Virus record (IMG/VR): IMGVR_UViG_3300023084_000004
DNA from: a virus
Direction: 5' to 3' (one strand)
DNA: 64,000 bases
Shown: in pieces, positions 1,115-21,500 of the stretch
Layout: each line of letters opens with the position of its first letter
Numbering within the stretch: position 1 is the stretch's first letter
The notes under the pieces: model-generated
The model's database searches: none
What the model was told of the DNA's origin: nothing
Seen by the model: only the letters and a program-made list of their open reading frames with translations
Translations under genes and position numbers: made by a program

Positions 1115-4100
1115 TTATTTTGACTTTAATTCGTCAATTTGTTTTTGTTGTTCTTTAATAGCTTCAATCAATAATCCGACAATGTTTCCATAAGAAACTG
1201 ATTTATATCCTTCGCTTGTAAGCCCAACAACTTCAGGAAGAACTTTTTCTACTTCTTGCGCAATTAAACCAATTTCATGTCTTTCGTTATCTATCTTATT
1301 ATATGAAACTCCTCGTAAAGCTTTTACTTTATCAAGCGAACTTTCAAGTGTTTGTATATTTTCTTTTAATCTTTCGTCAGAATTTGTTGTGACGTTACCT
1401 GTTGCTGTAAAATCACCTGTTCCTGTATCGAATGTAAATCTTGTAGTTGTTCCTTCTCTCATTATGAGATCATGAGAGGCGTCAAAATCAATGTACATTG
1501 AAGTACCGTTATCATAGAACTGAACATCTTCACCAGTTCCGAAATATGCTGAACCGCCTCCACCGTTAGAACCATCTTGGAATACAATCTTACCAGAAGA
1601 TACTGTATTTGTAGCGGTTCCATCGAATGAACCACCACCGCCTGATGGCCATGAGGTAATTGTGGATCCACCAAGTGTCATTGATGTTGCTGTTACACTT
1701 ATAAAGTCAGCATTTTCATATATGATAGTATCGGTATTTAAGTTAAGTGTAATATTTCTTGTACCATTGTATCTTACAGAAGACATGATGTATAAGTCAC
1801 GAACACCACTTCCGTTAGTTACAAAGGTTGGCTTCATAGAAGCTGTTGTTTGAAGAACAGAGTTTTGAGTATTAATATCTACAGGATTAACACCTGAAGC
1901 CGAACCAGCTGGACCTTGGAAACCTATTGTACCTTGAGGACCTTGTGTACCGGTCTGACCTTGAAGACCTGAACCAGTAACACCAGAAACACCTTGAATA
2001 CCTTGGAAACCGATATAACCTTGAATACCTCTAAAGCCTTGAACACCAGGTGAACCAGCAAAACCTTGTGGGCCTGCCGAACCTGAACCAAATGCACCTT
2101 GAGTACCAGTATAACCTTGGAAACCTCTAGTACCTTGTGGACCTGCTACACCTGCAGGACCCTGTGTGGCTGCACCAGCTAAACCGTCCGCACCTTGAGG
2201 ACCGGCTGGTCCTTGACCACCTGAAGTACCTTGACCGGAAAAACCTTGAATACCTCTAAAGCCTTGAACACCCTGTGCACCAGCAGTACCTTGTGGACCA
2301 GAACCACCAGAACCACCATCTAGACCTTGCGGACCTTGAATACCTGTTGTTCCTTGGATACCCTGTAAGCCTGTTCCAAATCCACCTTGAACACCTTGGA
2401 ATCCATTTGCACCCTGCGCACCTTGAATACCAGCCCCACCATCGCCACCAACAGTTCCTTGGAAACCTTGGAAACCACGATACCCTTGAACACCAGGAGC
2501 TCCTAAACCAAATGGTCCTTGAACACCTTGAGGTCCTTGAATACCAGTAAGACCTTGAACTCCAGTACCTGTTGTTCCATCAATACCTTGAGGACCTTGC
2601 GTACCTTGAGGACCCACTCCACCTGATCCTTGAGCTCCTATTAAACCTTGTAGACCTAATGGTCCTTGTAAACCTTGAACACCTTGAACACCGATAACAC
2701 CCTGTCCACCAATACCAGATGTTCCTTGAATACCTTGAATACCTTGAGGTCCTGGCGCACCAATTGCACTTGTTCCTTGTAAACCTTGAGGACCTTGTGT
2801 ACCGCCTGAACCATCAGAACCTTGAATACCTTGAATACCTTGAGCACCCGTGGCACCTTGGAAACCACCTGCTCCAACACCACCGATACCTTGAGCACCA
2901 GTTAAACCTTGAATACCTTGAATACCTTGAGCGCCAACACCACCAGGTCCTTGGAAACCACCTGCACCCTGTGCTCCATCAGCACCTTGTAAACCTTGAA
3001 TACCTTGAGGACCAACTCCACCAGTTGCACCATCAGAACCTTGAATACCTGTTGTGCCCTGTAGGCCTTGAATACCTTGTGCACCAGCACCATCGCGACC
3101 TTGTAGACCTTGAATACCTGTTGTGCCTTGTAAACCTTGAACACCTTGAGGTCCAGTTGAACCCGTAGCACCTGTATCACCAGTTCTTGCGAATGTAATT
3201 GTTACGTCTTCGTCATTTGCAAATGTTCCATTACCACTTACAAAAGCACAAGTGATATTAAAATAACCAGTTAATTCTGCTAATGCACTGATCGTAAAGA
3301 TTTGGAATATTTCTGGTTGTGATTTCTTAGTAACTTTAAAGTGTCCTTTAATAGGACTTGTAGAGTCATCAACTGTTCTTATGAATGGCTGAATATCAAC
3401 AAAGTTATCGTCTCTGTCATCAATATACATTGATGTGACAGATGAGTATGAACTATTGTTGAATTTTAAGTAACCAACACCAGGATCGTTATTAATTGTA
3501 TCTGTTGAGAAGGTATAATCGAATGTAACACCACCGAATGAACCTTCAGCACCTTGTAAACCTAATGAACCTTGTAAACCTTGAGGGCCCTGTGTACCAG
3601 CACCAGTTCTTCCTTGTAAACCTTGAACGCCCTGAATACCTTGAATACCTTGAATACCAGCAGGACCGCGTGGAATAAATGTAATTAATGTGGCAGGACC
3701 ATGAACCTGATTAACAGAGATTTCCCAGCTTGTTACATTACCATCTACATAATTAACATCAAAGTAACCGTAGTTCTTAGAACCTGAATCCCAAGTCCAA
3801 TCTGTAATTTCATAAACTAACCAATGGTGACCAGCAGGACCAGACCCATCGTTGTAATTACCTTCTTGAACTTTTAAATAACCTTTAACTGTTCCTGGTT
3901 GAGACGCAATCCAATCTAAGAAATCATCAATCTCTTGAGTATATTGGTCAAGAGGAATATCATCAAGTGTAATTAATGTTGCTAATGTTGGATTAGCATT
4001 ATTGAATTTGAAATTATTTGTACCAGGATCTGTTCCACCAATAATATTATTACTAAAGTTCCATATCCAAGTTAAACCACCATATTGTCCTTGCTCACCC

Positions 4101-6367
4101 TGAAGTCCTTGTAGACCTTGAATACCTGTTGTGCCCTGTAGGCCTTGAATACCTTGTGCACCAGTTGCACCAGCGTTACCCTGTAACCCTTGTAAACCTT
4201 GAATACCAGTCGTTCCTTGAACGCCCTGTACACCTTGAATTGCTTCACCTTGAATACCTTGGAAACCTTGAATACCAGTATCACCTTGGATACCTTTTTC
4301 ACCTTGTACTCCCTGAAGCCCTTGAATACCTTGAATACCTAATAGACCTTGGATACCTTGAATACCCTGTGTACCTTGATCACCAGTTCTTGAGAAGGTT
4401 ACACGAATATCTTCGCCATCTGATAATGAATTAATACCATTCATTTTAGCGACATCAAGTACCCAATAACCTGTTCCATTTACAATGTCATCAATTCTAA
4501 ATGTTACGAAATTATTAACATTAGATGCTTGTATAATTTTTACATAGCCTTTAACACCAGAACTTGAAGCAGCAAGATCGGTCATTAAACCGTCCATTAC
4601 ATTTGTGCTACCATCGTCTTGATCATCGATGTATATTTGCGTTGCTGAAGCAAAGGCGATATTATTAATTCTTAAGAAGCCTATACCAGGATCGGCAGCG
4701 GCTACGTTATCACTATAGGTATAATCATATGTGATTCCACCGAAATCACCTGTGTTACCTTGAACACCTTGTAAACCTGTAATGCCTTGTAAACCTTGAA
4801 CACCTTGAGGTCCTCTTGTACCTTGTGTTCCTTGAATACCAGTATTACCTTGAATACCAGTTGTGCCCTGTGGGCCTTGTAAACCTTGAAGACCCTGTGT
4901 TCCTTGCGGGCCTTGTGTACCTGTAGTACCTTGAATACCAGTTGTACCTTGGATACCTTGCTCACCTTCTTTCATGAAGGAAAGTCTAATATCAGTTCCG
5001 TTAGTTAATCCAGTTACACCTGAAACTCTTACAACATCAAATTGCCAGTAACCTGTTCTGTCTGTAACACCTTCAATTCTGAATAATACTTGGTCATATA
5101 TGTTATTACCGTTAACTGCTCTAACATAACCTTTAATAGGACCACCGACGCCAGCTAATTCAGTGGCGATACCGTCCATAACTCCAACACCGCCATCATC
5201 TTCATCATCAACATACATATAAAGACCAACAGCGGCCAAGTTAGTACTTGAGAATTTAACGATACCAGTTCCTGGATCTGAATCTACTGTATTATTTGAA
5301 TAAGTATAATCATATGTGATACCACCAAAGTCTCCAGTAGCACCTTGAGTACCAGTATCACCTTGAATACCTGTAATGCCTTGAACACCTTGTGGACCAA
5401 TACGTCCTTGTATACCTTGGAAACCTAAATCACCTTGGATACCTGTAATGCCTTGTACACCTTGAGGTCCTCTAAAACCTTGTATACCTTGGAAACCTAA
5501 ATCACCTTGAACACCCTGTGTTCCTTGCCAACCCTGAACACCTTGGAAACCACGGAAACCTCTTTCCCCTTGAATACCTTCATTACCTAAAGGACCTTGA
5601 ACACCTTGAATACCTTGTGGGCCTTGGAAACCTTGAACACCGCGGAATGTACCAATGTTAACCCAAACAGATCCATCATAAACCCAAAGTGTATCGTCAG
5701 ATTGATCAACAACTGCTTGACCTGTTGTTGCACCTGGAAATGCTGTATTTAATGAAGATTGGTCACCAGGACCCGCGATTGAACCGATAATATTAAAACC
5801 AGGACCATAAGAACCTTGTAAACCTTGAGCACCAGTGGCACCTTGGATACCTTGCTGTCCTTGTCCTATTTGACTAACAGGATCAGATGCAAATACCATA
5901 ATAGCAAATGCACTTGATGTAGACGGAGTTGTTACATTACCATTGCTGTCATAGAATGAAGCTTCAAAACCATTTACTGTTTTACTTTGAATTGATACTA
6001 AACGAGCATCATCATTCAATTCACCATCAGTGACAACAGTATAATCAGTATCAGGTTGAGCAGTATCAAAAGTAAAGTCTAATGTGCCATTACCTGCATC
6101 CCAATTCGAAGATGAAATTCCGGTACCTGTAATATTACCTGTTCCGTCAACTCGAATAAATGCGAATGGAAGAATAGCGTCAACTGTGGTTCCTGTACCA
6201 CCGCTTAATAATTCAATCCATTGTGTACCATCAGAAAAATATAATTTATCATTATCAGCATAGACAACCGCACCCTCATAAGCAACTGGGTCGAGTGTAA
6301 TCGGATAGGCTTGAGGATTACCAAAGCCTATTAACTGACTTTTTCCTGTTAGTGTTCCAAAGGACAT
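1115..6367 (-). CDS. Collagen-like (Gly-X-Gln) tail fibre, 1750 aa, with four internal globular repeats and C-terminal S74 intramolecular chaperone
   Basis: Long G-X-Q triplet runs (QGIQGLQG). Four FGG(I/L/V)T(Y/W/F)xxx(Y/F)S...DPG domains. C-terminal SDERLKENI...IGLIAQEVEKVLPEVV...YGNIVGLLIEAIKE is the peptidase S74 pattern. Confidence 0.88.
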   Translation of the reverse strand: MSFGTLTGKSQLIGFGNPQAYPITLDPVAYEGAVVYADNDKLYFSDGTQWIELLSGGTGTTVDAILPFAFIRVDGTGNITGTGISSSNWDAGNGTLDFTFDTAQPDTDYTVVTDGELNDDARLVSIQSKTVNGFEASFYDSNGNVTTPSTSSAFAIMVFASDPVSQIGQGQQGIQGATGAQGLQGSYGPGFNIIGSIAGPGDQSSLNTAFPGATTGQAVVDQSDDTLWVYDGSVWVNIGTFRGVQGFQGPQGIQGVQGPLGNEGIQGERGFRGFQGVQGWQGTQGVQGDLGFQGIQGFRGPQGVQGITGIQGDLGFQGIQGRIGPQGVQGITGIQGDTGTQGATGDFGGITYDYTYSNNTVDSDPGTGIVKFSSTNLAAVGLYMYVDDEDDGGVGVMDGIATELAGVGGPIKGYVRAVNGNNIYDQVLFRIEGVTDRTGYWQFDVVRVSGVTGLTNGTDIRLSFMKEGEQGIQGTTGIQGTTGTQGPQGTQGLQGLQGPQGTTGIQGNTGIQGTQGTRGPQGVQGLQGITGLQGVQGNTGDFGGITYDYTYSDNVAAADPGIGFLRINNIAFASATQIYIDDQDDGSTNVMDGLMTDLAASSSGVKGYVKIIQASNVNNFVTFRIDDIVNGTGYWVLDVAKMNGINSLSDGEDIRVTFSRTGDQGTQGIQGIQGLLGIQGIQGLQGVQGEKGIQGDTGIQGFQGIQGEAIQGVQGVQGTTGIQGLQGLQGNAGATGAQGIQGLQGTTGIQGLQGLQGEQGQYGGLTWIWNFSNNIIGGTDPGTNNFKFNNANPTLATLITLDDIPLDQYTQEIDDFLDWIASQPGTVKGYLKVQEGNYNDGSGPAGHHWLVYEITDWTWDSGSKNYGYFDVNYVDGNVTSWEISVNQVHGPATLITFIPRGPAGIQGIQGIQGVQGLQGRTGAGTQGPQGLQGSLGLQGAEGSFGGVTFDYTFSTDTINNDPGVGYLKFNNSSYSSVTSMYIDDRDDNFVDIQPFIRTVDDSTSPIKGHFKVTKKSQPEIFQIFTISALAELTGYFNITCAFVSGNGTFANDEDVTITFARTGDTGATGSTGPQGVQGLQGTTGIQGLQGRDGAGAQGIQGLQGTTGIQGSDGATGGVGPQGIQGLQGADGAQGAGGFQGPGGVGAQGIQGIQGLTGAQGIGGVGAGGFQGATGAQGIQGIQGSDGSGGTQGPQGLQGTSAIGAPGPQGIQGIQGTSGIGGQGVIGVQGVQGLQGPLGLQGLIGAQGSGGVGPQGTQGPQGIDGTTGTGVQGLTGIQGPQGVQGPFGLGAPGVQGYRGFQGFQGTVGGDGGAGIQGAQGANGFQGVQGGFGTGLQGIQGTTGIQGPQGLDGGSGGSGPQGTAGAQGVQGFRGIQGFSGQGTSGGQGPAGPQGADGLAGAATQGPAGVAGPQGTRGFQGYTGTQGAFGSGSAGPQGFAGSPGVQGFRGIQGYIGFQGIQGVSGVTGSGLQGQTGTQGPQGTIGFQGPAGSASGVNPVDINTQNSVLQTTASMKPTFVTNGSGVRDLYIMSSVRYNGTRNITLNLNTDTIIYENADFISVTATSMTLGGSTITSWPSGGGGSFDGTATNTVSSGKIVFQDGSNGGGGSAYFGTGEDVQFYDNGTSMYIDFDASHDLIMREGTTTRFTFDTGTGDFTATGNVTTNSDERLKENIQTLESSLDKVKALRGVSYNKIDNERHEIGLIAQEVEKVLPEVVGLTSEGYKSVSYGNIVGLLIEAIKEQQKQIDELKSK
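1905..5870 (-). repeat. Collagen-coding tandem repeats (9-nt period, e.g. CCTTGAATA / CAAGGT units) in several blocks
   Basis: Many copies of ccttgaatacc, ccttgaacacc and ccttgtaaacc on the + strand, interrupted by four globular-domain segments. Confidence 0.9.
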
Positions 6368-6848: not shown

Positions 6849-9800
6849 TTAAATTACTGCTCTACTGTTTGAAGCTCTTCTTGCAAGTTTTCTTACAGAA
6901 GATGTAAATGGTCGTCCTTCAATTCGACCTGTTCTACCATTAATTCTTAGACCTCTTGCGAAGTATTGGTTATTCAATTCATCCGCACCAGACCATCTAA
7001 TTCTACCACCGTCTTCACTTAGTACCGAAGCTACCGCTGATATAGCAGAACCTAAGTTTCTAAAGTTTAGAGGTAGAGCATTTCTGTTAACACCCGCGGA
7101 TGCACCATTAAACTGGTGAGCAATAGATTCTACCAAGGAACCAAATACTAGAGTTTCAGGTCTTAAGATATTATCTTTTAGACAATCATTAAATAATCCT
7201 TCAACCATTAAGTCATGCTGTGAGTTAGGTGATAGATTATCAACAATATAATCTCTCATTCTATCCCAAGCACCAGTGAAGGCATCTAATAACGATGTAT
7301 CATTAGGTCCATCTAGTACCCATGTTGTTCCGTTCCAGTAATATATATCTCCAGCGAAATGATTAGTTGCATAGTTAGATGCAACAATATATGCATGGTT
7401 TGGTTTTTGTCCTGTTATTGCCGCAAGATCTGAAAGTTGTTCAACACTTCCTTGATACTTATAAGCCGCATTAGATGGATTAAATACTGGGAATGTGTGC
7501 TGTCCTTTCTGATCGAAGAATGCTGCAGTAAATGATCTTGTTGATTTTTGAGATCCTGCTACGTCTCCATATACTGGTGTACCTGCAGAAGCATCTTCAT
7601 ATCTGAAGTCGTTTGTAATAGCTTCAAGCAAGTTGTAACCATCTCTTCTTGTTAATCCAATATCGATAAAGTCGTATGTGCTATTAACAAATCTTACAAC
7701 ATCAAATGCAAGATCGAGTTTATTTTGCTCAAGAATAAATTGAGCACTTGTGAATTGATCTCCTGAGTATGTATAATCTGGTTCTTCTTTAGCAGGTAAG
7801 TACTTAGTATCTTTAAAGAATTGTGTCTTATAGAAAATATTAGCAAGATTTTGTACTTTTTCGGCTTCAACTTGAGTTCCAAGTTCGCCAAGAGCAACCT
7901 GATTTGGATATTTTCCTACAACAATATCTTTACAAATTACACCGAGTTGCTTATAAGCTTTTGCTGTTGCAACTCTTTGATCTTCAGGGACTCTATATTG
8001 ATTATTCCAGAAGTAGAAATCTGCATTCCATCTTGATGCGATATTACCGCCATAGTTCAAGTCATAAGAGAATGCGTCAAGTAAGTAACCTACGTCTCTT
8101 CTACACTTATCTCTGTTATAATCAAGAACATCAAATTCTGTATTGATATATTCAATCATATCGTTAGCAAGAATTTCAAGATTATCATCAATCTGTTGAG
8201 CTGCACCTATAACGTCTGAAGCAACCCAAGCTGTTGTAGGTTGTACTAAACCAGGCATTGAATCAAGTGAATTTGCTCTGATAACATCTTCTACAATTCC
8301 GATTAAGTCAGAAACTCTTGCACCTTCAACCGCAGTTGCTGGTGTACCTGTTGTATCAAATGGTGTATCAGTATATGTTGTATTTGCAATACTTCCATCT
8401 TCTTGAACAACCGCATCAAGAACTGTTCCTAAGTAGTTGTATACATCAGCAGTTTGAGTTCTTGTATCTGCAGGTAATACGCTCACACCCCAATCGAAGT
8501 AAATTTGAGCTGCGATACGTGTTGCATAGTTTCCGTCATATTGAATATCATGAGAGATAGCATCGATTAAGTATCCAATGTCTCTTCTACACCTTTGTTC
8601 AGGGAAACTCAATCCGTTATGAACATTAGAAATATAATTTAAGATCGAAGCGGCTAGGTTAACGCTTTCATCTTCAATCAATTCTTTAGATGCTACGTAT
8701 GGAGTTCTTTGCCATGTTTGTACAGGATCTACGCGATCTGGGAATGAAACGTAAGATCCTTTATCTACGACATTGGCAACAATCTTAACTAGGTTTTGAG
8801 CTCTTATTGCGATTTCTGGGCTACCAGCAATTTGTGTCTGATCTTGTTTTTCTATATTACCATCAATTTGTAATATTGCATTAGGTATTGCACTTACAAA
8901 AGTATGTGCACCTGTGTATTGTTTTGCATATCCAGTATTTACAGTAAATGTATTTGAAGTTACTGCTGTAATTTCAAGAGGTTTCTTAAATGCAGGATCG
9001 GTTCTTCTTGGATGAGAAATTTGAACAGCAGGTGAACCACACTCGAATGTTATACCTTCTTCTGCGATAATAATATGATCGCCAACACTCATATAATGAG
9101 GTGAAGTTGTTGTAATAACAGTTTCTCCAGTGGTTGGACTATAAGTTGCTGTACTTACACCAAACTTACGCTTAACCCAATCTGTTTGATCTACATCAAG
9201 TCTTCTTACACATTGCTCAACAAGATTTGATACATGAGTAAATGCTTTCTTACTTGCTTCTCTCTGGAATACTGGTAGTGTACTTACTGCATTATCAAAA
9301 TACATATAAGCGGCATTTAATGTTGCTGCATTACCACCGTATTGAATATCATGTGATACTGCATCAAGAACATATCCAATATCTCTTCTACATTTATCTT
9401 CATCATAAGGAAGAATTTCAAAGAATCTTGCAAGATAAGTAAGAATTCCATCTTGAATACCTGATATTGAAGTAACGAGTTGAGCATAAGCTGTTTGATA
9501 TTCTGCTTGATAACCTGCAAGATTTGGAAGTTCTTCAGCTGGTAAACTATCAATACCATCATTATCTATGGCATCAGAAACTAATTCAAACATTTGTCTA
9601 ACTTTTAATGCCATTGCAGCACCTGCATTACCAGATGCGAATGATTGATTTTCAGCATTACCAGTAGTTTTTGTTACTGCAGAATCTTGAACAACTAATT
9701 CAGCAACCGTTGCGATATGAGCAAATGCTGCAGCGGTTGGAGCTCTTTGATCTTCAGGTAATATTGCTACTGCGTTTTCGAAGTAGATATTAGCATTCCA

Positions 9801-12800
9801 TCTTGAAGCTACATTACCACCGTGCATTGCATCCCAAGTTACTGAATCAATAATATATCCAAGATCTCTTTCACACTTAGCTGAATCATAAACTAGTGAA
9901 CCATAGTTTTGTGCAATCCAAGCAGTCATTTCAGCTTGCATGAATGCTTTGTTATTTTGTAATTGTTCTCTTGCGTTGATGCCATTAGCACCAGCTTGTG
10001 AAGCAGCTCCAAATGATATTGTATCAGGAGTATTATTACCCATAATATCAATAATTTCATTAAATGCTGCTTGTGCTCTTTCTCTTGCACCATCATCAGT
10101 AATCGATCTTACTGCGATGTCTCTAGCGTATTCAACACCTTTAATTGTTTCTGTAAGTTGTTCATTCACAACTAGATTTGTTCCAGCAGTACCTGAACGA
10201 TATGCTAATCCATTAAAGACTGAATTGAAGTTTGAATCTGCTAATACGTCTCTTGCAACTGCTTTAACAATTGTTTCGATATCACGCTTACACTTATCTC
10301 CATCGAAAGTAAAGTATTTGTCTCTTAAGTATGCAATCGTATCGGCAGCAATAAAGTCTTTGTTTAATTGAATTTGCTTACGTGCTTGTGTTCTATTTGA
10401 ATCAACTGTAGGATCAACTTGTGTTGTAGTTAAGTTTTCGTCAGATGCGTCATCTACTACATTAGCAATAATTTCTATAAGATCATGTACCGCAGTACCT
10501 GTTGCCGCGTCAGCCGGTGTTCCAGAAGTATCTTGTGTTGGAACATTATTTGCTGAAGGAGTAATTGAAATTTCTTGTACAACATCGCTTGCAACATCAG
10601 CTAATCTTTGGAATGCAAGTTTTGTAGGTATGCGTTGCTCTTCAGGAAGAATATTAATTAAAGTACGTAAACCTGAAACGTTTGCTGTCTTGTATGTTTC
10701 AGCAGTATCTCTAAATTGTCCTGAAACTTCAATTGGAAGAACGTTAATTGATCTGAGTTGTTCTAAATCAGCAGAAATTTCATTGTCTAATCTAAAGTAG
10801 TATTTTGCTGCTTCGATAGTATTAGCATTACCACCATAGATAATATCTTTAGAAACGGCGTCAATAATAAGACCAACATCTCTTCTACATGTCGCTTTAT
10901 CGTATGGTAAACCTTTCCATTCTCTTCTTACATAACCGATAACGTCATCTTGAAGAACCTCTGTTTGTCCATCAATCTTATTAACTGCATCAGCATAACC
11001 AGTTTCAATAATTGGTTCTACATATTCTGGTAACCAAGTAAGTGTATTGTCTCTAATAACGTTAGTTGTAATTTCTACTAATTCTTTAACTTTATTAGCA
11101 ACTGCAATACCTGCATCTGTTTGTGAAACATCTTGTGTTGCAGCATTACCGCTTGTTACTGAAACTGCTTGGTCTCTAACAATTTGATAACATACTTCTG
11201 CAATGTGTGCCCATGTTTTAGCAGTTGGTAAAATTTGATCACCTGGTAATACAGAAATTGCATTATCATAATACATTCTAGCGAAGTTTACAGAAGCTGC
11301 GTTTGAACCATGTTGGATATCCCAAGAAACTGCGTCGATCAAGAATCCTGTATCTCTTTCACACTTAGCAACATCATATACAAGATTTGGCCAAGTTTGA
11401 GCAATATATGCTGTAACTTCAGCTGCTAGGAATGCTTTGTTTAATTGTAATGCAGTTCTTGCGGTTGTATGATTTGCGCTTACAGTGTTTGTTCCAAATG
11501 TAAGAACATCAGCATTACCAGTACCGTTATTTAGAATATCAATTATTTCATCGAATGCTGCATTTGCTCTTGTTAAAGAATTTCCTGTTAATTCATTTGC
11601 AATTTCTGATTTTAAGAAATTAATCGAACCAGTAGTTTGTGGTAATTGATCTGAAACAACTAGATTAATACTTCCTGAACCAAGTTGATATGAAAGACCT
11701 GCAAACACTGCGTTATAATTTGAACCTGTTGCAACATCTCTTCGTATTGCATCAAGAATTAAACCTGTATCTCTTGAACATTTTGCTCCATCAAATACAA
11801 AATAATTATCATCTAAATAAGCCATGATTTCGTCTTGAATCATGTTCCTATTGATTTGTAATTGCTCTGCAGCTCTTTGTCCGTCTGAATTATATGTTAC
11901 TTTAGCAACAGCATGATTTGCTGCAGATACAAATGTATGAGCACCACCAGCACCAACTCCAACATTTACTGTAATATCATCACCAGCAACAGTTGTAATT
12001 CTCATTGGAGTATTATAGTTGCCGTCACCTTTTCTTGGGTATGAATGTTCTGTTGCATTACCATCAGAAGCACAAGTAAATGTTAAACTGTATGGAGCAA
12101 ATTCAATATAATCATCAACTAATAAATTATGTCCTGGAATCGTTACGACACTGATTCCAGTTACTGGATCGTATGTAGCTGTTGTTGGTGTATAATATTG
12201 TAAGTAATTTGAAGGATCTGTCCAAATGATAGGATCTCCAACAATACAATCGTCATCTGCTCTTACAAAGGTATGTGCACCAGTATAACCGTTAGCATCT
12301 CCAACATTCATCGTAATTGTTGTAGAAGTAATTCCTGTAATTTTTACAGGTGTTTTATACGCTGGATCTGTAGGTCTTGGATGAACGATTTCAATACTAT
12401 TACATTCAAATACAACACTCTCTGGTTTAATTTCTACATAATCACCAACTACAAATGAGTGTTGCCCGATTGTTGCTTCAAATTCTCCTGTGATAGGATC
12501 GTATGTAGCAGTTGATAATGAGAATGTTGGAATATATGTTGCTGCTTTAACACAATCAGCATCAGCAGCTACAAAGGTATGTGCACCAGTATAACCACCG
12601 GCATCTCCAGCATTAAATTCAATTGTGGTTGAGGTAACCTTATTAATTGTTAAAGGAGTCCTGTAGGCAGGATCTGTGGGTCTTGGATGCACAATATTAA
12701 CAGAAGGAGAACCACACTGCCAAGTTAAACTTAAATCATCTAATACAATTTTATCACCTTGTTTAAAGTCGTGAGCACCAATTGTAAGACTTGTAATACC

Positions 12801-15800
12801 AGTTAATGGATCGTATGTTCCATTAGTTGGAGTATATGATTTACCTTTACTTTCTACAATATCAATAAGTTGTCTAAATGACTCGTCAGATCTATGAATT
12901 GATGCAGCATCAGTAATAGTGTTATTAGCAATAAGTTGTTTTAATTCGTTAAAGGCACCAACTGTTTCTGGTCTTTCGTTATACCAGTTTCTTAATGTTC
13001 CTTGATTACCTTGTCTGTATGCAACACCTGCTTGTTTAGCATTAAAGTTTGTACCAGTAATAATATCTCTTTCGATTGCTGGTAAAATGTGCTGAATAAC
13101 ATCTCTTTCACATTTTTCTGAATCATATCTGAAGTAGTTATAATCAATATAACCCATCATATGATCTTGAATAAAGTTTTTGTTATTCTGTAATTGAATT
13201 CGTGCGTTACGCTTACTTGAAATAATATTTGTATTATCAGAGAATCTTATTTTAGAACTTGCAAGAATAACTGAATTTACGTCTGCACTTACAAAAGTAT
13301 GTGGAGCAACATAAGCCGCAGGACCAACATTAATTGTAATTGATGTTGGAGTTGTTGCTTCAATTTCTAGAGGACTTCTGTAAGCAGGATCTCCAACTCT
13401 TGGATGCGATAGTGTTGTGACTGTACCATCACCCTCACAAGAGAATGAAATACTTCCAGGCTTGAGAATTACTTTATCTCCAACACTTAATCCATGTCTA
13501 CCAGCAAGTGTAAGTACAGCAATACCAGTTTCTGCATCGTATGTTCCATCTATAGGAGTCCATGCAACATCAGAAGCTGCAGTTATTGCATCTTTATAAG
13601 CACTCACAAATGTATGAGCACCTGTATAACCATTTGCGTCACCTGCTTGAACAGTTACTGTTGTTGCTGTTTTATTAAGAACAACGTATGGCTTGTTATA
13701 GAAAGGATCGGTTGTTCTTGGGTGAGAAATTGTTACACCACTACCACAACTAAATGTCATTCCATTTGGTTTGATAAAGAATGAATCACCAACTGCAAAA
13801 TTATGTGAACCAATTGTTACTGTCATAATTCCAGTTACTGGATCGTATGTCGCATCTGTAGGTGTATAAGAAGCATCTACTTGTGCAAATCTTCCACCAT
13901 CACCTTCAAGTATTCCAATAATTTCGTCAAATGCTTCATCAGATCTTGCAGAACCAATATAGCTGTTTGCGTCAAGTATTTCGTTTGTTTGATCTTTAAG
14001 TCTTCGATATGCAGAGATTGTTTCATCTCTTTGTTTATCAATAACTTTCTTAGCAGCATTCATGTAATAAGCATTACCTGCAGTTACTGCATTATAGTTT
14101 GTTTCTAATAACATATCGTACTTAACGGCAGGTAAAATATATTCTGTAACATCTCTTCTACATTTTACACTATCGTAAGCAAAGAATTCGTCGTTATTGT
14201 CAATCCAATCTGTAAGTTCATCTTGGATAAATGATCTGTTGTCTTGTAATAATTCTCTAGCTGCTGTTCTTTCAACTTTACCAGAATCAACCCATGTAAT
14301 TGGGTTCATATTTTCTTCACCATATTGAAGAACATTATAGAGTTCTTGCATTGAAGTATTTGCGCGATTAATAATTTCAGTTGAACCTTCAAAAATAGAT
14401 TCAACGCGCGATTGCAAGTATTGGTTAGCGCCAAGAGTTTCTTCTAATTGATCTCCTGGAACAATGTATGAAATTGGTGAGCGATAAGTAATACCAGCTA
14501 ATCTACCCCAATAATTAGAATCAAGTGCAATATCGTATCCTAATCCATCAACAATAATTCTACTATCTCTTTCACATTTACCTGCATCATAACCAGTATA
14601 ACCTAATCCACCATTTGCTGAATTTGCAGTGAGATATTCAACCATATCATCAACGATATCGTCATAAGCATTCTCGATAGTGTCAGCAAATACTGTGTTA
14701 CCAAATATAGTTGCGTTAGTTGATTTAGGTGCGAAGAACTGAGTTGTACCTTTTGCTCTCATTGAGATGTCACCGAACTGAGTACCTGAGTTGTTCAGTG
14801 TCATTTGTCCACCATTCAATGCATAGAATGCGCATCGTACGAAAATGGATAGAGAACCGATACCGTTAACACCAGCACCGTCTCGAGCAACATAACCCAT
14901 ACCGTTTTGAGAACGAGGTGTGAAACCGAAACATAATACGTAAGTATATAATGAATCTGGGTCTAATACTCTTCTATCTGCAAGTAGACATCCACCACCT
15001 CTTCCAACTAATCTGTTAGGGAAGTCGTCGATACCAATTGCGTCGATTGTAGCAGTACCACCAGATTCAGATGTAATAGTATCTCCAACCGCAAAACCTT
15101 TGTTGTTCTTTAAGTTTCTTACGTGAATCTTATTATCAGAAGCAAGTTCAGAAACATAAGATACGAAACCAACTGCACCAGATGAGAATGTAATCTCATC
15201 ATCAACTGCAAATCCGCTAACAGCTGACACATTACTTAATGTAAACTCTCTACCTAAATCGTCGAGTGTACCTTTACTGTTATATGGGTTTAGAGGTGGT
15301 TCAACATCTACCCTGTTAAAGTTAGATAATTGAGAACTGTCTCTGATGTATGGTGAACGGAGTAACTTAGCACCAGGTCTGTAAGCAACGGCGAATCCAC
15401 CTTCTGGATAATCGAAGTTATCGATTTTCCAGTTCATATAAGCAAAACCTTGAACGTAGTTACCAGAACCAACTAACCAACAGTTATTATTTTCATAACC
15501 AGGAAGTGCTTCAATAACTGTAGCATATTGTCCAGCTTTAGAAGTAACCGCACAATCATCTGGAATTGCAAGTTCACCTTTTGTATAATAAGTACCTTGT
15601 CCTACTTCAATATGAACTGCGTTGTTTAATGAGTTTCTATCATAAGAACCACCTGCTTTTTCTAAAGCAAGTTCACATGCTCTTTCAAGTGTACGAACTG
15701 GTTGTAATTCAGTACCTGGATATTCGTCATTACCTTTAGCAGCATCTACAGAAACTTTTAATGCTGATTGAGTAGATTTTGATACTTCGTTGAATAATTG

Positions 15801-16988
15801 TTTGTAAGAAATTTGTTCTGTTTCACCAGTTTTTTCATTTCGAATTGCAAAGTAACTTTCTTCATCAATAGGAGCTTCAAACTCTTTAGTAAGCTCCATA
15901 TCGAAGTCAACAAGTTGAGATGAATCAATTACACCACCTGAGAATGTTGATTGTGAAAGTGTACCATTATCGAATGATGAATTTGTTGAAGATAATCCAT
16001 CAGCTGAAGAACTGGTAATCGTTAAATCGTTAGCAACCACTCCGTCCATTGTACCAGCAAATGAGGTATTTGAAATGGATCCATTTTGGAATACGGAATA
16101 ATCAATTGTTGAATTTGTAAGTACTACATTATTGCCTGTACCATCATTAAATTCTGATTGAGTAATAACTGTATTGTTAACTGTACCATCATTAAATTCT
16201 GAAGTTGTGATAACAGTATTACTAATATTTCCTTCATAGAAATTAGAAGCACTAATATCTGTTGTTGTAATATCTGAATTTGAAAGAGATACATCAACAC
16301 CAACAACAGTAGACATTGTACCGCTATTGAATTCTGAACTTGAAATGACTGTATTATTAACTGTACCATCATTAAATTCTGATTGAGTAATGACAATATT
16401 GTTTGCTGTAGAATTTGAGATTGTGCCATCAGTAAATGATGAATTAGCAAGTCTAATATTATCACCATCAACATTAGACATATCGCCATTTTGGAATGTT
16501 GAACTATCGATGGTTGAATTATTGAGTACTACGTTGTTACCAGTACCATCATTAAATTCTGATTGAGTAATGACAATATTATTTGCGGTACCATCTGAGA
16601 AATCAGAATTGGTAATTGTCATTGTATTTGCTGTTGTAGCAAATATCGTTCCAAGCTGGAACGAAGAGTAAGACATTACAATGTTGTTAGCGTCAGAGTT
16701 TGTTATTTCGGTTCTATCAATACTACCACGAACAAAATCTGTATCTTCAATATCTGAATTGTCAATAATAACATTATCAAGTCTTGAATCTGACATGACA
16801 ACACCGGAGATAGTACCTCCAGTGATGGTGATTCTTGAAAAAATCTCGTATTGAATGGCTTCGACTAATTCTTTACGAGTTATGTTTTTGGTACCATCGT
16901 CACCTTGAACAAGGTTAACAATAACGAACAGGTCTTCCGACCTGGTATTTGCACCTGTAATTGTACCTAGTTCTGAAATTTTTGACAT
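6849..16988 (-). CDS. Giant virion structural protein, 3379 aa, multi-repeat
   Basis: N-terminal S/N/D/T-rich repeats; a beta-helix-like region starting VSVDAAKGNDEYPGTELQPVRT; 11 CxRD helical repeats plus one degenerate copy; 6 TYDPxTG...HPR...HTFV repeats. Confidence 0.8.
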   Translation of the reverse strand: MSKISELGTITGANTRSEDLFVIVNLVQGDDGTKNITRKELVEAIQYEIFSRITITGGTISGVVMSDSRLDNVIIDNSDIEDTDFVRGSIDRTEITNSDANNIVMSYSSFQLGTIFATTANTMTITNSDFSDGTANNIVITQSEFNDGTGNNVVLNNSTIDSSTFQNGDMSNVDGDNIRLANSSFTDGTISNSTANNIVITQSEFNDGTVNNTVISSSEFNSGTMSTVVGVDVSLSNSDITTTDISASNFYEGNISNTVITTSEFNDGTVNNTVITQSEFNDGTGNNVVLTNSTIDYSVFQNGSISNTSFAGTMDGVVANDLTITSSSADGLSSTNSSFDNGTLSQSTFSGGVIDSSQLVDFDMELTKEFEAPIDEESYFAIRNEKTGETEQISYKQLFNEVSKSTQSALKVSVDAAKGNDEYPGTELQPVRTLERACELALEKAGGSYDRNSLNNAVHIEVGQGTYYTKGELAIPDDCAVTSKAGQYATVIEALPGYENNNCWLVGSGNYVQGFAYMNWKIDNFDYPEGGFAVAYRPGAKLLRSPYIRDSSQLSNFNRVDVEPPLNPYNSKGTLDDLGREFTLSNVSAVSGFAVDDEITFSSGAVGFVSYVSELASDNKIHVRNLKNNKGFAVGDTITSESGGTATIDAIGIDDFPNRLVGRGGGCLLADRRVLDPDSLYTYVLCFGFTPRSQNGMGYVARDGAGVNGIGSLSIFVRCAFYALNGGQMTLNNSGTQFGDISMRAKGTTQFFAPKSTNATIFGNTVFADTIENAYDDIVDDMVEYLTANSANGGLGYTGYDAGKCERDSRIIVDGLGYDIALDSNYWGRLAGITYRSPISYIVPGDQLEETLGANQYLQSRVESIFEGSTEIINRANTSMQELYNVLQYGEENMNPITWVDSGKVERTAARELLQDNRSFIQDELTDWIDNNDEFFAYDSVKCRRDVTEYILPAVKYDMLLETNYNAVTAGNAYYMNAAKKVIDKQRDETISAYRRLKDQTNEILDANSYIGSARSDEAFDEIIGILEGDGGRFAQVDASYTPTDATYDPVTGIMTVTIGSHNFAVGDSFFIKPNGMTFSCGSGVTISHPRTTDPFYNKPYVVLNKTATTVTVQAGDANGYTGAHTFVSAYKDAITAASDVAWTPIDGTYDAETGIAVLTLAGRHGLSVGDKVILKPGSISFSCEGDGTVTTLSHPRVGDPAYRSPLEIEATTPTSITINVGPAAYVAPHTFVSADVNSVILASSKIRFSDNTNIISSKRNARIQLQNNKNFIQDHMMGYIDYNYFRYDSEKCERDVIQHILPAIERDIITGTNFNAKQAGVAYRQGNQGTLRNWYNERPETVGAFNELKQLIANNTITDAASIHRSDESFRQLIDIVESKGKSYTPTNGTYDPLTGITSLTIGAHDFKQGDKIVLDDLSLTWQCGSPSVNIVHPRPTDPAYRTPLTINKVTSTTIEFNAGDAGGYTGAHTFVAADADCVKAATYIPTFSLSTATYDPITGEFEATIGQHSFVVGDYVEIKPESVVFECNSIEIVHPRPTDPAYKTPVKITGITSTTITMNVGDANGYTGAHTFVRADDDCIVGDPIIWTDPSNYLQYYTPTTATYDPVTGISVVTIPGHNLLVDDYIEFAPYSLTFTCASDGNATEHSYPRKGDGNYNTPMRITTVAGDDITVNVGVGAGGAHTFVSAANHAVAKVTYNSDGQRAAEQLQINRNMIQDEIMAYLDDNYFVFDGAKCSRDTGLILDAIRRDVATGSNYNAVFAGLSYQLGSGSINLVVSDQLPQTTGSINFLKSEIANELTGNSLTRANAAFDEIIDILNNGTGNADVLTFGTNTVSANHTTARTALQLNKAFLAAEVTAYIAQTWPNLVYDVAKCERDTGFLIDAVSWDIQHGSNAASVNFARMYYDNAISVLPGDQILPTAKTWAHIAEVCYQIVRDQAVSVTSGNAATQDVSQTDAGIAVANKVKELVEITTNVIRDNTLTWLPEYVEPIIETGYADAVNKIDGQTEVLQDDVIGYVRREWKGLPYDKATCRRDVGLIIDAVSKDIIYGGNANTIEAAKYYFRLDNEISADLEQLRSINVLPIEVSGQFRDTAETYKTANVSGLRTLINILPEEQRIPTKLAFQRLADVASDVVQEISITPSANNVPTQDTSGTPADAATGTAVHDLIEIIANVVDDASDENLTTTQVDPTVDSNRTQARKQIQLNKDFIAADTIAYLRDKYFTFDGDKCKRDIETIVKAVARDVLADSNFNSVFNGLAYRSGTAGTNLVVNEQLTETIKGVEYARDIAVRSITDDGARERAQAAFNEIIDIMGNNTPDTISFGAASQAGANGINAREQLQNNKAFMQAEMTAWIAQNYGSLVYDSAKCERDLGYIIDSVTWDAMHGGNVASRWNANIYFENAVAILPEDQRAPTAAAFAHIATVAELVVQDSAVTKTTGNAENQSFASGNAGAAMALKVRQMFELVSDAIDNDGIDSLPAEELPNLAGYQAEYQTAYAQLVTSISGIQDGILTYLARFFEILPYDEDKCRRDIGYVLDAVSHDIQYGGNAATLNAAYMYFDNAVSTLPVFQREASKKAFTHVSNLVEQCVRRLDVDQTDWVKRKFGVSTATYSPTTGETVITTTSPHYMSVGDHIIIAEEGITFECGSPAVQISHPRRTDPAFKKPLEITAVTSNTFTVNTGYAKQYTGAHTFVSAIPNAILQIDGNIEKQDQTQIAGSPEIAIRAQNLVKIVANVVDKGSYVSFPDRVDPVQTWQRTPYVASKELIEDESVNLAASILNYISNVHNGLSFPEQRCRRDIGYLIDAISHDIQYDGNYATRIAAQIYFDWGVSVLPADTRTQTADVYNYLGTVLDAVVQEDGSIANTTYTDTPFDTTGTPATAVEGARVSDLIGIVEDVIRANSLDSMPGLVQPTTAWVASDVIGAAQQIDDNLEILANDMIEYINTEFDVLDYNRDKCRRDVGYLLDAFSYDLNYGGNIASRWNADFYFWNNQYRVPEDQRVATAKAYKQLGVICKDIVVGKYPNQVALGELGTQVEAEKVQNLANIFYKTQFFKDTKYLPAKEEPDYTYSGDQFTSAQFILEQNKLDLAFDVVRFVNSTYDFIDIGLTRRDGYNLLEAITNDFRYEDASAGTPVYGDVAGSQKSTRSFTAAFFDQKGQHTFPVFNPSNAAYKYQGSVEQLSDLAAITGQKPNHAYIVASNYATNHFAGDIYYWNGTTWVLDGPNDTSLLDAFTGAWDRMRDYIVDNLSPNSQHDLMVEGLFNDCLKDNILRPETLVFGSLVESIAHQFNGASAGVNRNALPLNFRNLGSAISAVASVLSEDGGRIRWSGADELNNQYFARGLRINGRTGRIEGRPFTSSVRKLARRASNSRAVI
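16138..16580 (-). repeat. Near-identical coding repeats in the N-terminal region of the giant protein
   Basis: 38-nt GTACCATCATTAAATTCTGATTGAGTAATGACAATATT identical at 16363-16400 and 16543-16580; its first 29 nt recur at 16138-16166. Confidence 0.85.
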
Positions 16989-18567: not shown

Positions 18568-21500
18568 CTAGGTTAATGCAATACCGCGATAATCTCTTAA
18601 TGTTGGTGCATTATGCACATTAGGAGATAATAAATCTATTCTAATAGCAAATCTTCTGAATCCTGTCCAGTTGGTTGATGCGTCATTAGAATATGTTAAA
18701 ACTCCATTTCCATCTTTGTTATCATCAGATACTCTAAACTTAAACTCTCTATAATCATGCAGATTAGTATTACTTGAGAATACACCAACACCTTCAAACA
18801 ATTCGAGCTCAATCCAATCTACAGAATCAAAAGGCTCACTATCAAAAGAACTTTGTGGTCTAATATAAGCCTTAATATCAGATCCTGATGGACGATATCC
18901 TGTTACAATTAAGTGTAAATCTTCAGCATCAAGATCAGCAGCTAATTCAATAGATTTTGAAATATATTTAGAAGAAGTTGCTGCGTCATTTGTAATCTTA
19001 TATGCATAAGCTAATAGTTTTGATGTTTCAATATCTACAAATGGAGTTGATGTTACATTAGCATCATTTTCCATTTCAATTACGATATCAAAAGCTTTTG
19101 AACGATTTGGGTCGTTTGATTTACTATAAACAATTACACCTTTTTGACTAAAATGATTATTATCATTAAATGACATTGGCATACTATAAGTTACATTTAC
19201 ATCAGAAGGTGGAACAAAGGTTCCTCTTACTAATGTTCTTGATGTTGAATCAACAGCCTTATTAATAAGCGGTTGAATATAACTAAGATTAATATTATCG
19301 ATACTTACTACGTTTGCTTGTTTACCACTATCTAATCCTAATATATTTGCACCCGCCGCAAATACTGAACCAGATCTAACTGAGCTTTCTTCTAAATGCA
19401 TTTCATAAGGATTATTAATATTGTAGTATGAAAGTTTACCGATAACTACTGGTGTACCTGTTCCATTACTTACTGCAAAAGGTGCAGGTTTGTCAAGTGT
19501 AAGTGTCGTAGCATTTTCAATACTTACAATTTGGAAAATATCTGATTGAGTATTACCTGCATTCGCGATAAGAATATAATCTTCTTCAGCATACGTATCA
19601 TCAAGCGCAGTACCTGTCATCGTACTTGTATTAATAGGTACGTTAACGGTAGCACTTGTTGAACCTTGAAGTGATTTAGTTTGATAAATTGTTTCACCAG
19701 GAATAAATCTTCCAGTAATATTATCAACTGTTAAAAATTCATGATCGTTATTTGTCATTGTGACAGAACCAGTTGCAGTGTTGAAGTTATGTCTACGTAA
19801 AGTAAATTTCATATCTTCATCCTGGTATGACTTCCAAGCACTATTATTGGTAGAGCTGAATAATACCCCATCTCCCCAATCCTGTACAATGGCAGCCCCC
19901 TGAGTGACTCCTGGTGTCAAATCTGTGCCGCCTACCTTAGAAGTATATACTAAGTAGTTAGGATCTGATGCATCTGGTTGAACTACAATTGCATATTCTT
20001 TTTCAACATCAAGTCTTACAGGTGTATCAAACGCAAATGTAGTTGCGATCGAAGCATCGTCAGATACTGAGTTTGTTAAATCAGTTGGTAATTTGTGTAC
20101 AACTGAGAATGGAACGATTTGATTTGAAGGATAACCATTTACAACTTCTCTTACCTGTAATGACACACCATTAGTATCACTTACACGTTTGAAGTATACA
20201 TCAACCTCTGATAAGTAAACAGAGTTTGAACCTTGTCCCATACCTTTCTTAATAAAGAATGTTTGAGCAATTGGGTCACGACCTCTTGGTCTTCTTGCAA
20301 CGTTTCTTGTAGTTGTCGTTGTATTAACATCAAATTCTGGTTGACGAGTTGATGTTGTTAAACTTGTTTTTTCAACGCTAAAGTTGTATGCTCTATAAGT
20401 AACAAACCCTCTTGATGTTGAACCACTTTCAATACTATTATATAAATTAACATCAGCAATTTCTAATACTCTGTCACCAACAAAGAATGTTTCTGGTGGT
20501 AAAGCAAATACTGCTCTTAATACACCATTTGCATCTGTTGTAACAGCGTCACCTTTAGAACCATTACGTTTAATTGATCCTGCAGTATTATCAGGTGAAC
20601 CTGGAATTACGTGAGCATTAACGTCAACACCATCAAAGAAGAAATAATGTCGTACATTTGGACGTAAGCCAGACATATAAACTTTAATGTCACGGCCGGC
20701 CATGTATGGTTTGAAACTAAAATTAGAAACAAAGTCTCCAACAAATTGTTCTTGTGTTGAACCTTGTGATACACTAATTTCGCTTGTTCGAGTTGTTATA
20801 GTCGTAACTTCTGTTCCGCTACGACCGCGACCACCCATACGTCTTCCCCAACTCCAAGCATCTTCTCTAAATTCAGTTGTTTGAGTTGTGTCAGTGAGTG
20901 GTAAAAATTCTTGAATGTTATCAACAAATTCCTCGAAAGCTGTTGACATATCAATGTCAATAGTAACTGGATTTGTTGTTGTATCGTATGCAGCATCATA
21001 AGGTGGAGAAATAACTCCATCACCTTGATATTTGTAGAAGTTACTTACTGCATTACGGAAACCTGAAGCATAAGGTTGATTAATGATTTCAACATTTGCA
21101 TTACGACCGAGTGTTCCAACTTTAGCATCTGATGTTGTTGGGAAGATCGAAGCTCCAGTACTTGTTTTATATTTAAGATCCATAGAATAAGTTTTAACTG
21201 CAGGTGTTAAAATCTTTTGATTAAATGGAACAGCTGCATTAAAAGATGGATCTTGAATATTTGCTAATGAGAGATCATTAAATGGATCAACTACAAAACC
21301 GTTTTTAAATCTGTTTAAACCATTTTCATCTAAAACATTTAGATTTTGTGTTTCTGATTCTAATTGGTTTAATGAAATATAATAAGCCATGTTATCAATC
21401 TTCTTCTCTAAAGAATGAAGATCTTTCATGGTATAATTTTTAATTCCTGTAGAACGTGCTTTAATCGCGTATTCTCTTTTCTTCGCAGTATTAGCAGCTG

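Follow-up and report, generated by a model that had tools for sequence, protein, structure and literature searches.

The 64,000-nucleotide stretch of DNA analysed here, from an uncultured marine T4-like phage (the window; IMG/VR record IMGVR_UViG_3300023084_000004), encodes a giant protein with twelve homologous helical repeats, which very probably take the globin fold of phycobiliproteins, as judged from a structure model. Eleven of the repeats keep an intact C-x-R-D motif. The window is part of a 101-kb IMG/VR virus contig (G000) that is estimated to be 47% complete. The open reading frame (ORF) in question is the following:

6849–16988, minus strand: giant ORF P0001, 3379 amino acids (aa), predicted protein of the baseplate/tail-fibre module

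The giant ORF contains 11 C-x-R-D motifs and one T-R-R-D copy, and every one of them lies inside a homologous helical repeat of about 140–160 aa. The number of C-x-R-D motifs expected from the composition of the protein is 0.098, and the maximum in 20000 shuffles was 3. The motif is the best-conserved part of the repeat. In adjacent repeats the motifs are spaced by 137–162 aa, and the domain E-values of the 12 repeats in the hidden Markov model (HMM) range from 1e-32 to 1e-55. Two subtypes, short and long, alternate; in the short one the loop that leads to the last helix is short. A preliminary description made from the letters of the DNA had listed the same eleven motifs and the T-R-R-D copy; its coordinates were right within a few bases, and the peptides quoted in it are present in the repeats with Cys 2533, 2372 and 1737. 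The predicted array would occupy the central and C-terminal two thirds of the giant protein:

14265–14738, minus strand: predicted phycobiliprotein-like domain 1, residues 751–908, K-C-E-R-D, Cys 805 (codon 14574–14576), the most divergent copy
13830–14312, minus strand: predicted phycobiliprotein-like domain 2, residues 893–1053, Cys 943 (codon 14160–14162), short type, followed by two beta domains
12801–13268, minus strand: predicted phycobiliprotein-like domain 3, residues 1241–1396, Cys 1293 (codon 13110–13112), followed by three beta domains
11544–11936, minus strand: predicted phycobiliprotein-like domain 4, residues 1685–1815, Cys 1737 (codon 11778–11780), short type
11079–11522, minus strand: predicted phycobiliprotein-like domain 5, residues 1823–1970, Cys 1876 (codon 11361–11363), long type
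10482–11042, minus strand: predicted phycobiliprotein-like domain 6, residues 1983–2169, Cys 2034 (codon 10887–10889), with an insertion of about 40 aa
10053–10439, minus strand: predicted phycobiliprotein-like domain 7, residues 2184–2312, Cys 2233 (codon 10290–10292), short type
9588–10034, minus strand: predicted phycobiliprotein-like domain 8, residues 2319–2467, Cys 2372 (codon 9873–9875), long type
9108–9548, minus strand: predicted phycobiliprotein-like domain 9, residues 2481–2627, Cys 2533 (codon 9390–9392)
8304–8753, minus strand: predicted phycobiliprotein-like domain 10, residues 2746–2895, Cys 2800 (codon 8589–8591), the first repeat in the structure model
7845–8267, minus strand: predicted phycobiliprotein-like domain 11, residues 2908–3048, Cys 2962 (codon 8103–8105), superposes on phycobiliproteins with a root-mean-square deviation (rmsd) of 2.0–2.3 Å
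7332–7808, minus strand: predicted phycobiliprotein-like domain 12, residues 3061–3219, degenerate T-R-R-D at residue 3113 (codon 7650–7652)

Domain 9 carries a beta domain nested in its G-H loop, and its last helix comes only after that, at residues ~2726–2743. In domain 12, Cys is replaced by Thr, and Arg and Asp are retained.

The conservation of the repeat was analysed in 887 instances taken from 80 related IMG/VR loci and the window (81 giant ORFs). There are 457 non-identical repeats among them, about 451 of which cover the motif columns, and all residue percentages refer to the latter set. Although identity among these aligned repeats is only about 22%, Asp of the motif is found in 100% of them, Arg in 99%, and Cys in 91%; the Thr share in the Cys column (8%) comes from the last, degenerate domain. 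Lys precedes the Cys in 78% of the repeats. A second Asp, located 11 residues after the motif Asp, is present in 100%, and Asn, Tyr, Gln and Thr further on are conserved in 80–93%. The family is widely spread: a search of 1.84 billion proteins with the 12-repeat profile found 1449 cluster representatives at E ≤ 1e-3. The best 150 of the 1449 are nearly all giant proteins, with up to 36 matched stretches, the latter in proteins of about 6000–6400 aa.

The model used for the fold search was constructed with AlphaFold2 for residues 2725–3075 (window 7764–8816), template-free, from a 150-row alignment of tandem repeat pairs. Its predicted local distance difference test (pLDDT) score is 77.3, and its predicted template-modelling (pTM) score is 0.62. 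The model is all-helical; each repeat shows the same set of five to six helices, and the third long helix has the Cys in its first turn. A first AlphaFold model from a 12-row alignment (pLDDT 54) was too uncertain and was left out of the fold search. In a Foldseek search of the PDB, the matches listed (through rank 48) are all phycobiliproteins or engineered derivatives, namely phycoerythrin, cryptophyte beta subunits, phycocyanin alpha, and the ApcE bilin-binding domain; the target-normalised template-modelling (TM) score reaches 0.70 and the rmsd is 2.8–3.7 Å, with no E-value below 0.04.

The structure-only comparison with VIA-align, which is independent of Foldseek and covered 48161 chains, also has phycobiliproteins in all of the top eight places (Z 13.2, 13.1, 11.8, 11.5, 11.0, 10.8, 10.1 and 10.1). 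Among them are 8imk_G (Z 11.8, rmsd 2.0 Å over 116 residues) and the ApcE bilin domain (Z 11.5, 2.1 Å over 117), and the good superpositions have an rmsd of 2.0–2.3 Å over 116–122 of the ~136 residues. They span chain residues 33–158 only; alignments reaching chain residue 1, as would be needed to cover the N-terminal X-Y helical hairpin that serves alpha-beta pairing in phycobiliproteins, borrow helices from the preceding repeat, and their rmsd is 4.9–5.7 Å. The next ranks are taken by photocobilins (Z 10.0 and 9.6), then by globin-coupled sensors, RsbR, the pXO2-61 sensor domain, and hemoglobins. Matches in BFVD come from Synechococcus phages and uncultured Caudovirales; they are giant proteins named "tail" or "structural" or left uncharacterised, and none is named phycobiliprotein-like. 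Neither the ESM Atlas feature search nor the Atlas fold search returned a usable match, the two-domain model being a poor query for a global shape search.

The repeats were also compared by sequence. When a 62-aa piece of repeat 9 was compared with PDB sequences, the best 14 hits and 23 of the 25 overall were phycocyanin alpha chains, aligned at residues 80–105, each hit being non-significant alone (E 0.18–2.4). The match at 12 of 22 positions with the C-phycocyanin alpha chromophore site, given in the preliminary description, is therefore real. An hhalign comparison of 440 distinct phage repeats with 198 distinct CpcA/CpcB sequences from cyanobacterial cpcBA loci gave a probability of 86% and P = 5.1e-6 over 90 columns. 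In this alignment the repeat Cys coincides with Cys82/84, and the helix that precedes it (A..L..N) with helix B. The order of helices in the model also agrees with what had been proposed earlier for helices B and H. Against CpcA alone P was 2.6e-6, and against CpcB alone 0.004. Reversed and column-shuffled controls scored 8.5–17.4, compared with 41.7 for the real alignment.

Several results weigh against a relationship with phycobiliproteins. With the 8 motif columns masked, the hhalign score falls to 15–17 (P = 0.08–0.15). PF00502 was matched neither by 10 single repeats at E ≤ 10, nor by the whole protein, nor by the six frames of the 101-kb contig; the Synechococcus elongatus genome, used as a positive control, was matched. 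A search of PDB sequences with the 12-repeat profile found no phycobiliprotein, and Pfam searches with single repeats yielded chance-level hits only, among them a weak hit to a gp6-like helical domain (E 0.07). As for the structure, the model is a prediction, phycobiliproteins were included in the training of AlphaFold, and for helical models VIA-align Z values up to ~13 can come from common arrangements. All this could be explained if the motif were convergent or due to chance and the model were a generic or motif-biased helical bundle; the repeats might then be extended helical fibre segments. The Foldseek E-values and the low pLDDT of the first model, built from 12 sequences, would fit this explanation too. 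We nevertheless regard it as improbable. Two different structure searches put phycobiliproteins first and other globins after them, both families have the motif where the equivalent helix begins, and the alignment left after masking stays in the same register on helix B, the shuffled and reversed controls being far lower. The fold reading is persuasive despite the caveat about Z values because the ranking order is coherent and the rmsd is low over most of the 136-residue domain.

Since masking of the motif removes the significance, homology is not claimed from sequence alone; the sequence case is mainly the motif. What speaks for a relationship is that fold, motif, and position of the motif within the fold all agree. 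Taken together, these make common ancestry with phycobiliproteins or with the bilin biosynthesis-associated globins (BBAGs) likely. Heterotrophic bacteria, and also some cyanobacteria, possess BBAG-1 and BBAG-3 (Rockwell, Martin and Lagarias 2023, PMC10151467). The proposal, made from the sequence, that a phage structural protein contains a row of phycobiliprotein-like globin domains is supported by the best matches of Foldseek and VIA-align and by the hhalign register. The functions suggested along with it, namely chromophorylation, light sensing, photoprotection or mimicry of the host antenna, are a hypothesis. Of the expected profile support, the hhalign signal was obtained; it is lost when the motif is masked, and a PF00502 match is lacking.

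Another explanation is that the repeats are globins of the globin-coupled sensor or RsbR type that bind heme or another cofactor rather than a bilin. Globin-coupled sensors, RsbR and hemoglobins do appear in the structural ranking (Z 6–9.6); however, they come after phycobiliproteins, which outrank heme globins in both structure searches, and the motif is the C-x-R-D of the bilin type. His predominates in no column of the repeat profile (maxima 38% and 18%), so that a counterpart of the proximal His of heme globins is absent. The heme-globin reading was rejected on this ground, and the whole sensor-globin explanation is highly improbable.

The giant protein is predicted from its gene block and annotated relatives to be a virion appendage protein of a T4-like baseplate/tail-fibre module. 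It matches PHROG families of virion structural protein, tail fiber, and short tail fiber. The genes around it match T4-type tail tube cap, hub and lysozyme, and gp6-type baseplate wedge, and further wedge subunits, a wedge-fibre connector and a 446-aa fibre tip are also located nearby. The DNA polymerase of the contig shows 47% identity to that of the nearest cultured phages, which are marine cyanomyoviruses. A megablast search with the region of the giant gene gave no match among cultured phages. The only Pfam match of the giant ORF is an N-terminal pentapeptide-repeat region. Residues ~400–790 contain Cys, match no family, and look beta-helix-like by eye. In addition, six copies of a beta-type repeat are interleaved with the predicted globin domains and are unrelated to them. 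This repeat, judged to be beta-rich from its sequence, has the pattern Y-D-P-x-T-G ... H-P-R-x-x-D-P ... G-A-H-T-F-V and one conserved Cys per copy. These parts of the protein are located as follows:

15894–16820, minus strand: N-terminal pentapeptide-repeat region, residues ~57–365 (Pfam PF13599, E 1.4e-12)
13278–13868 (approximate), minus strand: two beta-type repeats of ~100 aa, one Cys each, no Pfam match
11919–12833 (approximate), minus strand: three more repeats of the same H-P-R-x-x-D-P beta type
8886–9158, minus strand: one beta-type repeat with H-P-R-x-x-D-P, nested inside domain 9

Two very large structural genes flank the giant ORF on the minus strand (1115–6367 and 18568–23940). 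They encode a 1750-aa collagen-like tail fibre and a 1790-aa phrog_358 protein of unknown function, and the C-x-R-D domain is absent from both.

Of 18 cultured T4-like marine phages searched with the repeat profile, 14 have the domain: P-HM1, P-HM2, S-PM2, S-RSM4, Syn9, P-SSM4, P-RSM4, P-SSM7, Syn1, Syn19, Syn33, S-SM1, S-SSM5 and S-ShM2. It was not found in P-SSM2, S-SM2, S-SSM7 and the pelagiphage HTVC008M. The giant carrier proteins are annotated as "virion structural protein, putative fiber" in Syn9 (gp101), as "gp7 baseplate wedge subunit" in P-HM2, and as "short tail fiber protein" (T4-like gene cluster 734) in S-PM2, S-RSM4 and Syn1. The copies of S-PM2, S-RSM4, P-HM1 and P-HM2 have K-C-x-R-D ... 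D ... G-G-N. Twelve of the 18 genomes encode CpeT (PF06206); each of the twelve has the domain, and none of the four non-carriers encodes CpeT (one-sided Fisher test, 91/18564 = 0.005, a value not corrected for shared ancestry, which lessens its weight). In S-PM2, S-RSM4 and Syn1, cpeT and the giant gene share a strand, with cpeT 0.7–1.5 kb upstream. The block consists of a small ORF (cluster 730), cpeT, a 2-oxoglutarate (2OG)-Fe(II) oxygenase (cluster 104), and the giant C-x-R-D protein (cluster 734), and is found at 162500–166200 in S-PM2, 19000–22500 in Syn1 and 162000–178500 in S-RSM4. In S-RSM4, tRNAs and an HNH endonuclease replace the oxygenase between cpeT and the giant gene. The oxygenase could belong to the same pathway. 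In the RefSeq record of S-PM2 (NC_006820, 166300–170300), 14 tRNA features with one locus tag overlap the giant "short tail fiber" coding sequence, which looks like an annotation error.

Genes of the ho1, pcyA, pebS or cpeT type had been thought of as possible partners elsewhere in the genome. The available 101 kb contain no heme oxygenase, ferredoxin-dependent bilin reductase (FDBR), CpeT, phycobiliprotein or psbA, in a contig that is 47% complete and stops short of the position of the cassette described below. This absence is uninformative because the contig ends before the place where a collinear relative carries hemO-FDBR. The relative, G001, is 170 kb long and 77% complete; its region 47.6–146.6 kb corresponds to 2.6–101.4 kb of G000, with protein identities of mostly 40–87%, and it encodes an orthologous 12-domain giant protein. 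In G001, hemO (202 aa) and FDBR (247 aa) are adjacent at 37.9–39.2 kb with 3 bases between them, ~62 kb from the giant gene and ~6–8 kb past the point that corresponds to the end of the G000 contig. Their neighbour is a class-3 lipase gene, transcribed divergently (G001:37263–40649). The two-gene cassette of hemO and FDBR is an arrangement known from uncultured marine phages, where its purpose is "still enigmatic" and a BBAG-like partner has only been speculated on (PMC11480375). Among other IMG/VR contigs, 30 that bear the domain have no FDBR, these contigs being only 11–26% complete, and five that bear FDBR have no domain, being only 21–42% complete.

Taking these data together, we propose the following explanation. 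During infection, each domain with an intact site would acquire a linear tetrapyrrole, bound to the Cys through a thioether, with the pyrrole nitrogens and a propionate held by Asp and Arg in the manner of phycobiliproteins. Attachment might be autocatalytic, as in BBAG-1/3, or proceed via a T-type lyase in phages that carry cpeT, and the bilin would come either from the host or from a phage cassette of hemO and FDBR such as that of G001. Each particle would then carry tens to hundreds of chromophores in its assembled fibre. Most likely they would serve a light-dependent change in the behaviour of the fibre or baseplate, for example in adsorption; alternatively, the bilin would be a purely structural cofactor. 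To the whole of this explanation, i.e., a T4-like appendage protein with twelve globin domains of the bilin lineage, bilin binding included, we give somewhat less than an even chance. That a bilin is actually bound by the domains is put forward tentatively, with circumstantial support from the hemO-FDBR pair of G001, from the confinement of cpeT to carriers of the domain among the 18 cultured phages, and from its position near the giant gene in S-PM2, S-RSM4 and Syn1. It is rather doubtful that the particle is pigmented, that is, that bilins covalently attached to the fibre domains are the substrate of the phage bilin genes (cpeT, hemO, pebS, pcyX, pcyA), and a light-gated function is unlikely.

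The same relatives and genes supply arguments on the other side. The copies of Syn9 gp101 (72420–75767) read C-E-D-D, C-K-T-D and C-K-D-D; Cys and Asp are kept, and Arg is lost. FDBR genes show no association with the domain, being present in 5 of 14 carriers versus 2 of 4 non-carriers (P-SSM2 and S-SSM7). G001, at 77% completeness, has neither CpeT nor psbA, and the host may not be a cyanobacterium. The invariant Asp at +11 and the conserved Asn, Tyr, Gln and Thr have no recognised counterpart in phycobiliproteins and could mark another function. Apart from those on G001 and the host, these observations suit the main rival explanation, according to which the globin fold was taken over and multiplied only as a compact spacer or adhesion bead of a long fibre, without any bilin. 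C-x-R-D and the remaining invariant polar residues would then serve to stabilise the fold, to make contacts between domains or chains, to bind a metal or a host-surface ligand, or to form a disulfide. Reiterated domains are common in giant phage fibres, and here a second, unrelated beta repeat is interleaved; domain 12 has Thr for Cys; and no report of pigmented phage particles was found in the literature open to searching. Such an apo module is a possibility to be taken seriously, if not the one we prefer. However, fold stability alone hardly accounts for the retention of a lone Cys, Arg and Asp at the level given above in repeats so divergent, and wherever the role of these residues is understood in relatives, they form the bilin site (PMC10151467). 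The association with CpeT and the location of cpeT beside the giant gene in three genera also point to bilin chemistry.

The adsorption of some cyanomyoviruses is light-dependent, and a light-induced change of the tail fibre has been suggested, with no candidate named (10.1101/167650). In the same study, P-HM1 and P-HM2 did not adsorb in the dark, and P-SSM2 did. This behaviour matches the carriage of the domain in P-HM1, P-HM2 and P-SSM2, three phages being far too few as evidence.

Bilin genes of phages (ho1/hemO, pebS, pcyA, pcyX, cpeT) have been known for about twenty years, and the usual explanation of them is support of the host antenna. This explanation fails for phages thought to infect non-photosynthetic hosts. 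If bilin-binding domains are indeed present in the giant proteins, an array of the phycobiliprotein fold with intact C-x-R-D would be a concrete bilin acceptor encoded by the phage, and both the purpose of the bilin genes and light-dependent adsorption would become testable in the cultured carriers S-PM2, Syn1, P-HM1 and P-HM2. The repeats would also constitute a third branch of bilin-binding globins, after the antenna proteins and BBAGs. If the particle were pigmented, the virion would have its own photoreceptor or a light-gated adsorption device.

In the part of the literature searched, no paper on phycobiliprotein-like domains in phage virion proteins was found. The closest known systems among phages are the giant fibre and baseplate proteins of cultured cyanomyoviruses, which contain repeats of this family (1–11 profile hits per genome). 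These homologues are distant (25–32% identity by tblastn) and differ in copy number and flanking domains, and none of those of Syn9, S-PM2, Syn1 and P-HM2 is annotated as phycobiliprotein-like.

With phycobiliproteins (PF00502; the nearest by sequence is the C-phycocyanin alpha chain, CpcA), the repeats share the predicted globin-type arrangement of helices (A/B, E, F/F', G, H). In both, K-C-x-R-D stands at the start of the helix E equivalent, which ends with G-G 18 residues after the Cys, and A..L..N in helix B aligns in register. Unlike phycobiliproteins, the phage repeats have no PF00502 match, a shorter B-E loop, and, in the superpositions described above, no clear N-terminal X-Y hairpin. 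They follow one another in tandem within a single predicted virion protein, 12 of them here and as many as 36 in other proteins, and are separated or interrupted by beta domains; the invariant Asp, Asn, Tyr, Gln and Thr are their own.

The photocobilin or photoglobin domains (PDB 8j2w, 8j2y; Z 9.6–10.0) have the globin fold that is predicted for the repeats, and they bind biliverdin; however, they rank below phycobiliproteins and are fused to B12-binding domains rather than being virion domains. Their lineage includes BBAG-2, which is without CXRD (PMC10151467). Phycobiliproteins are themselves one branch of a wider clade of bilin-binding globins, and CXRD, including the Cys for covalent attachment, is common to them and to BBAG-1 and BBAG-3; BBAGs take up bilins in E. 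coli without a lyase (PMC10151467). BBAG-1 and BBAG-3 are non-antenna globins with CXRD, a combination also predicted for the phage repeats. BBAG genomes also encode heme oxygenase and FDBR; G001 encodes both, and the 47%-complete G000 shows neither. The BBAGs differ in being small, single-domain, cytoplasmic proteins, clustered with V4R and Fe-S proteins, whereas the phage domains form an array in a structural protein. Judging by a comparison with BBAGs by description only, the phage repeats fit the wider clade of bilin-binding globins better than the antenna family proper.

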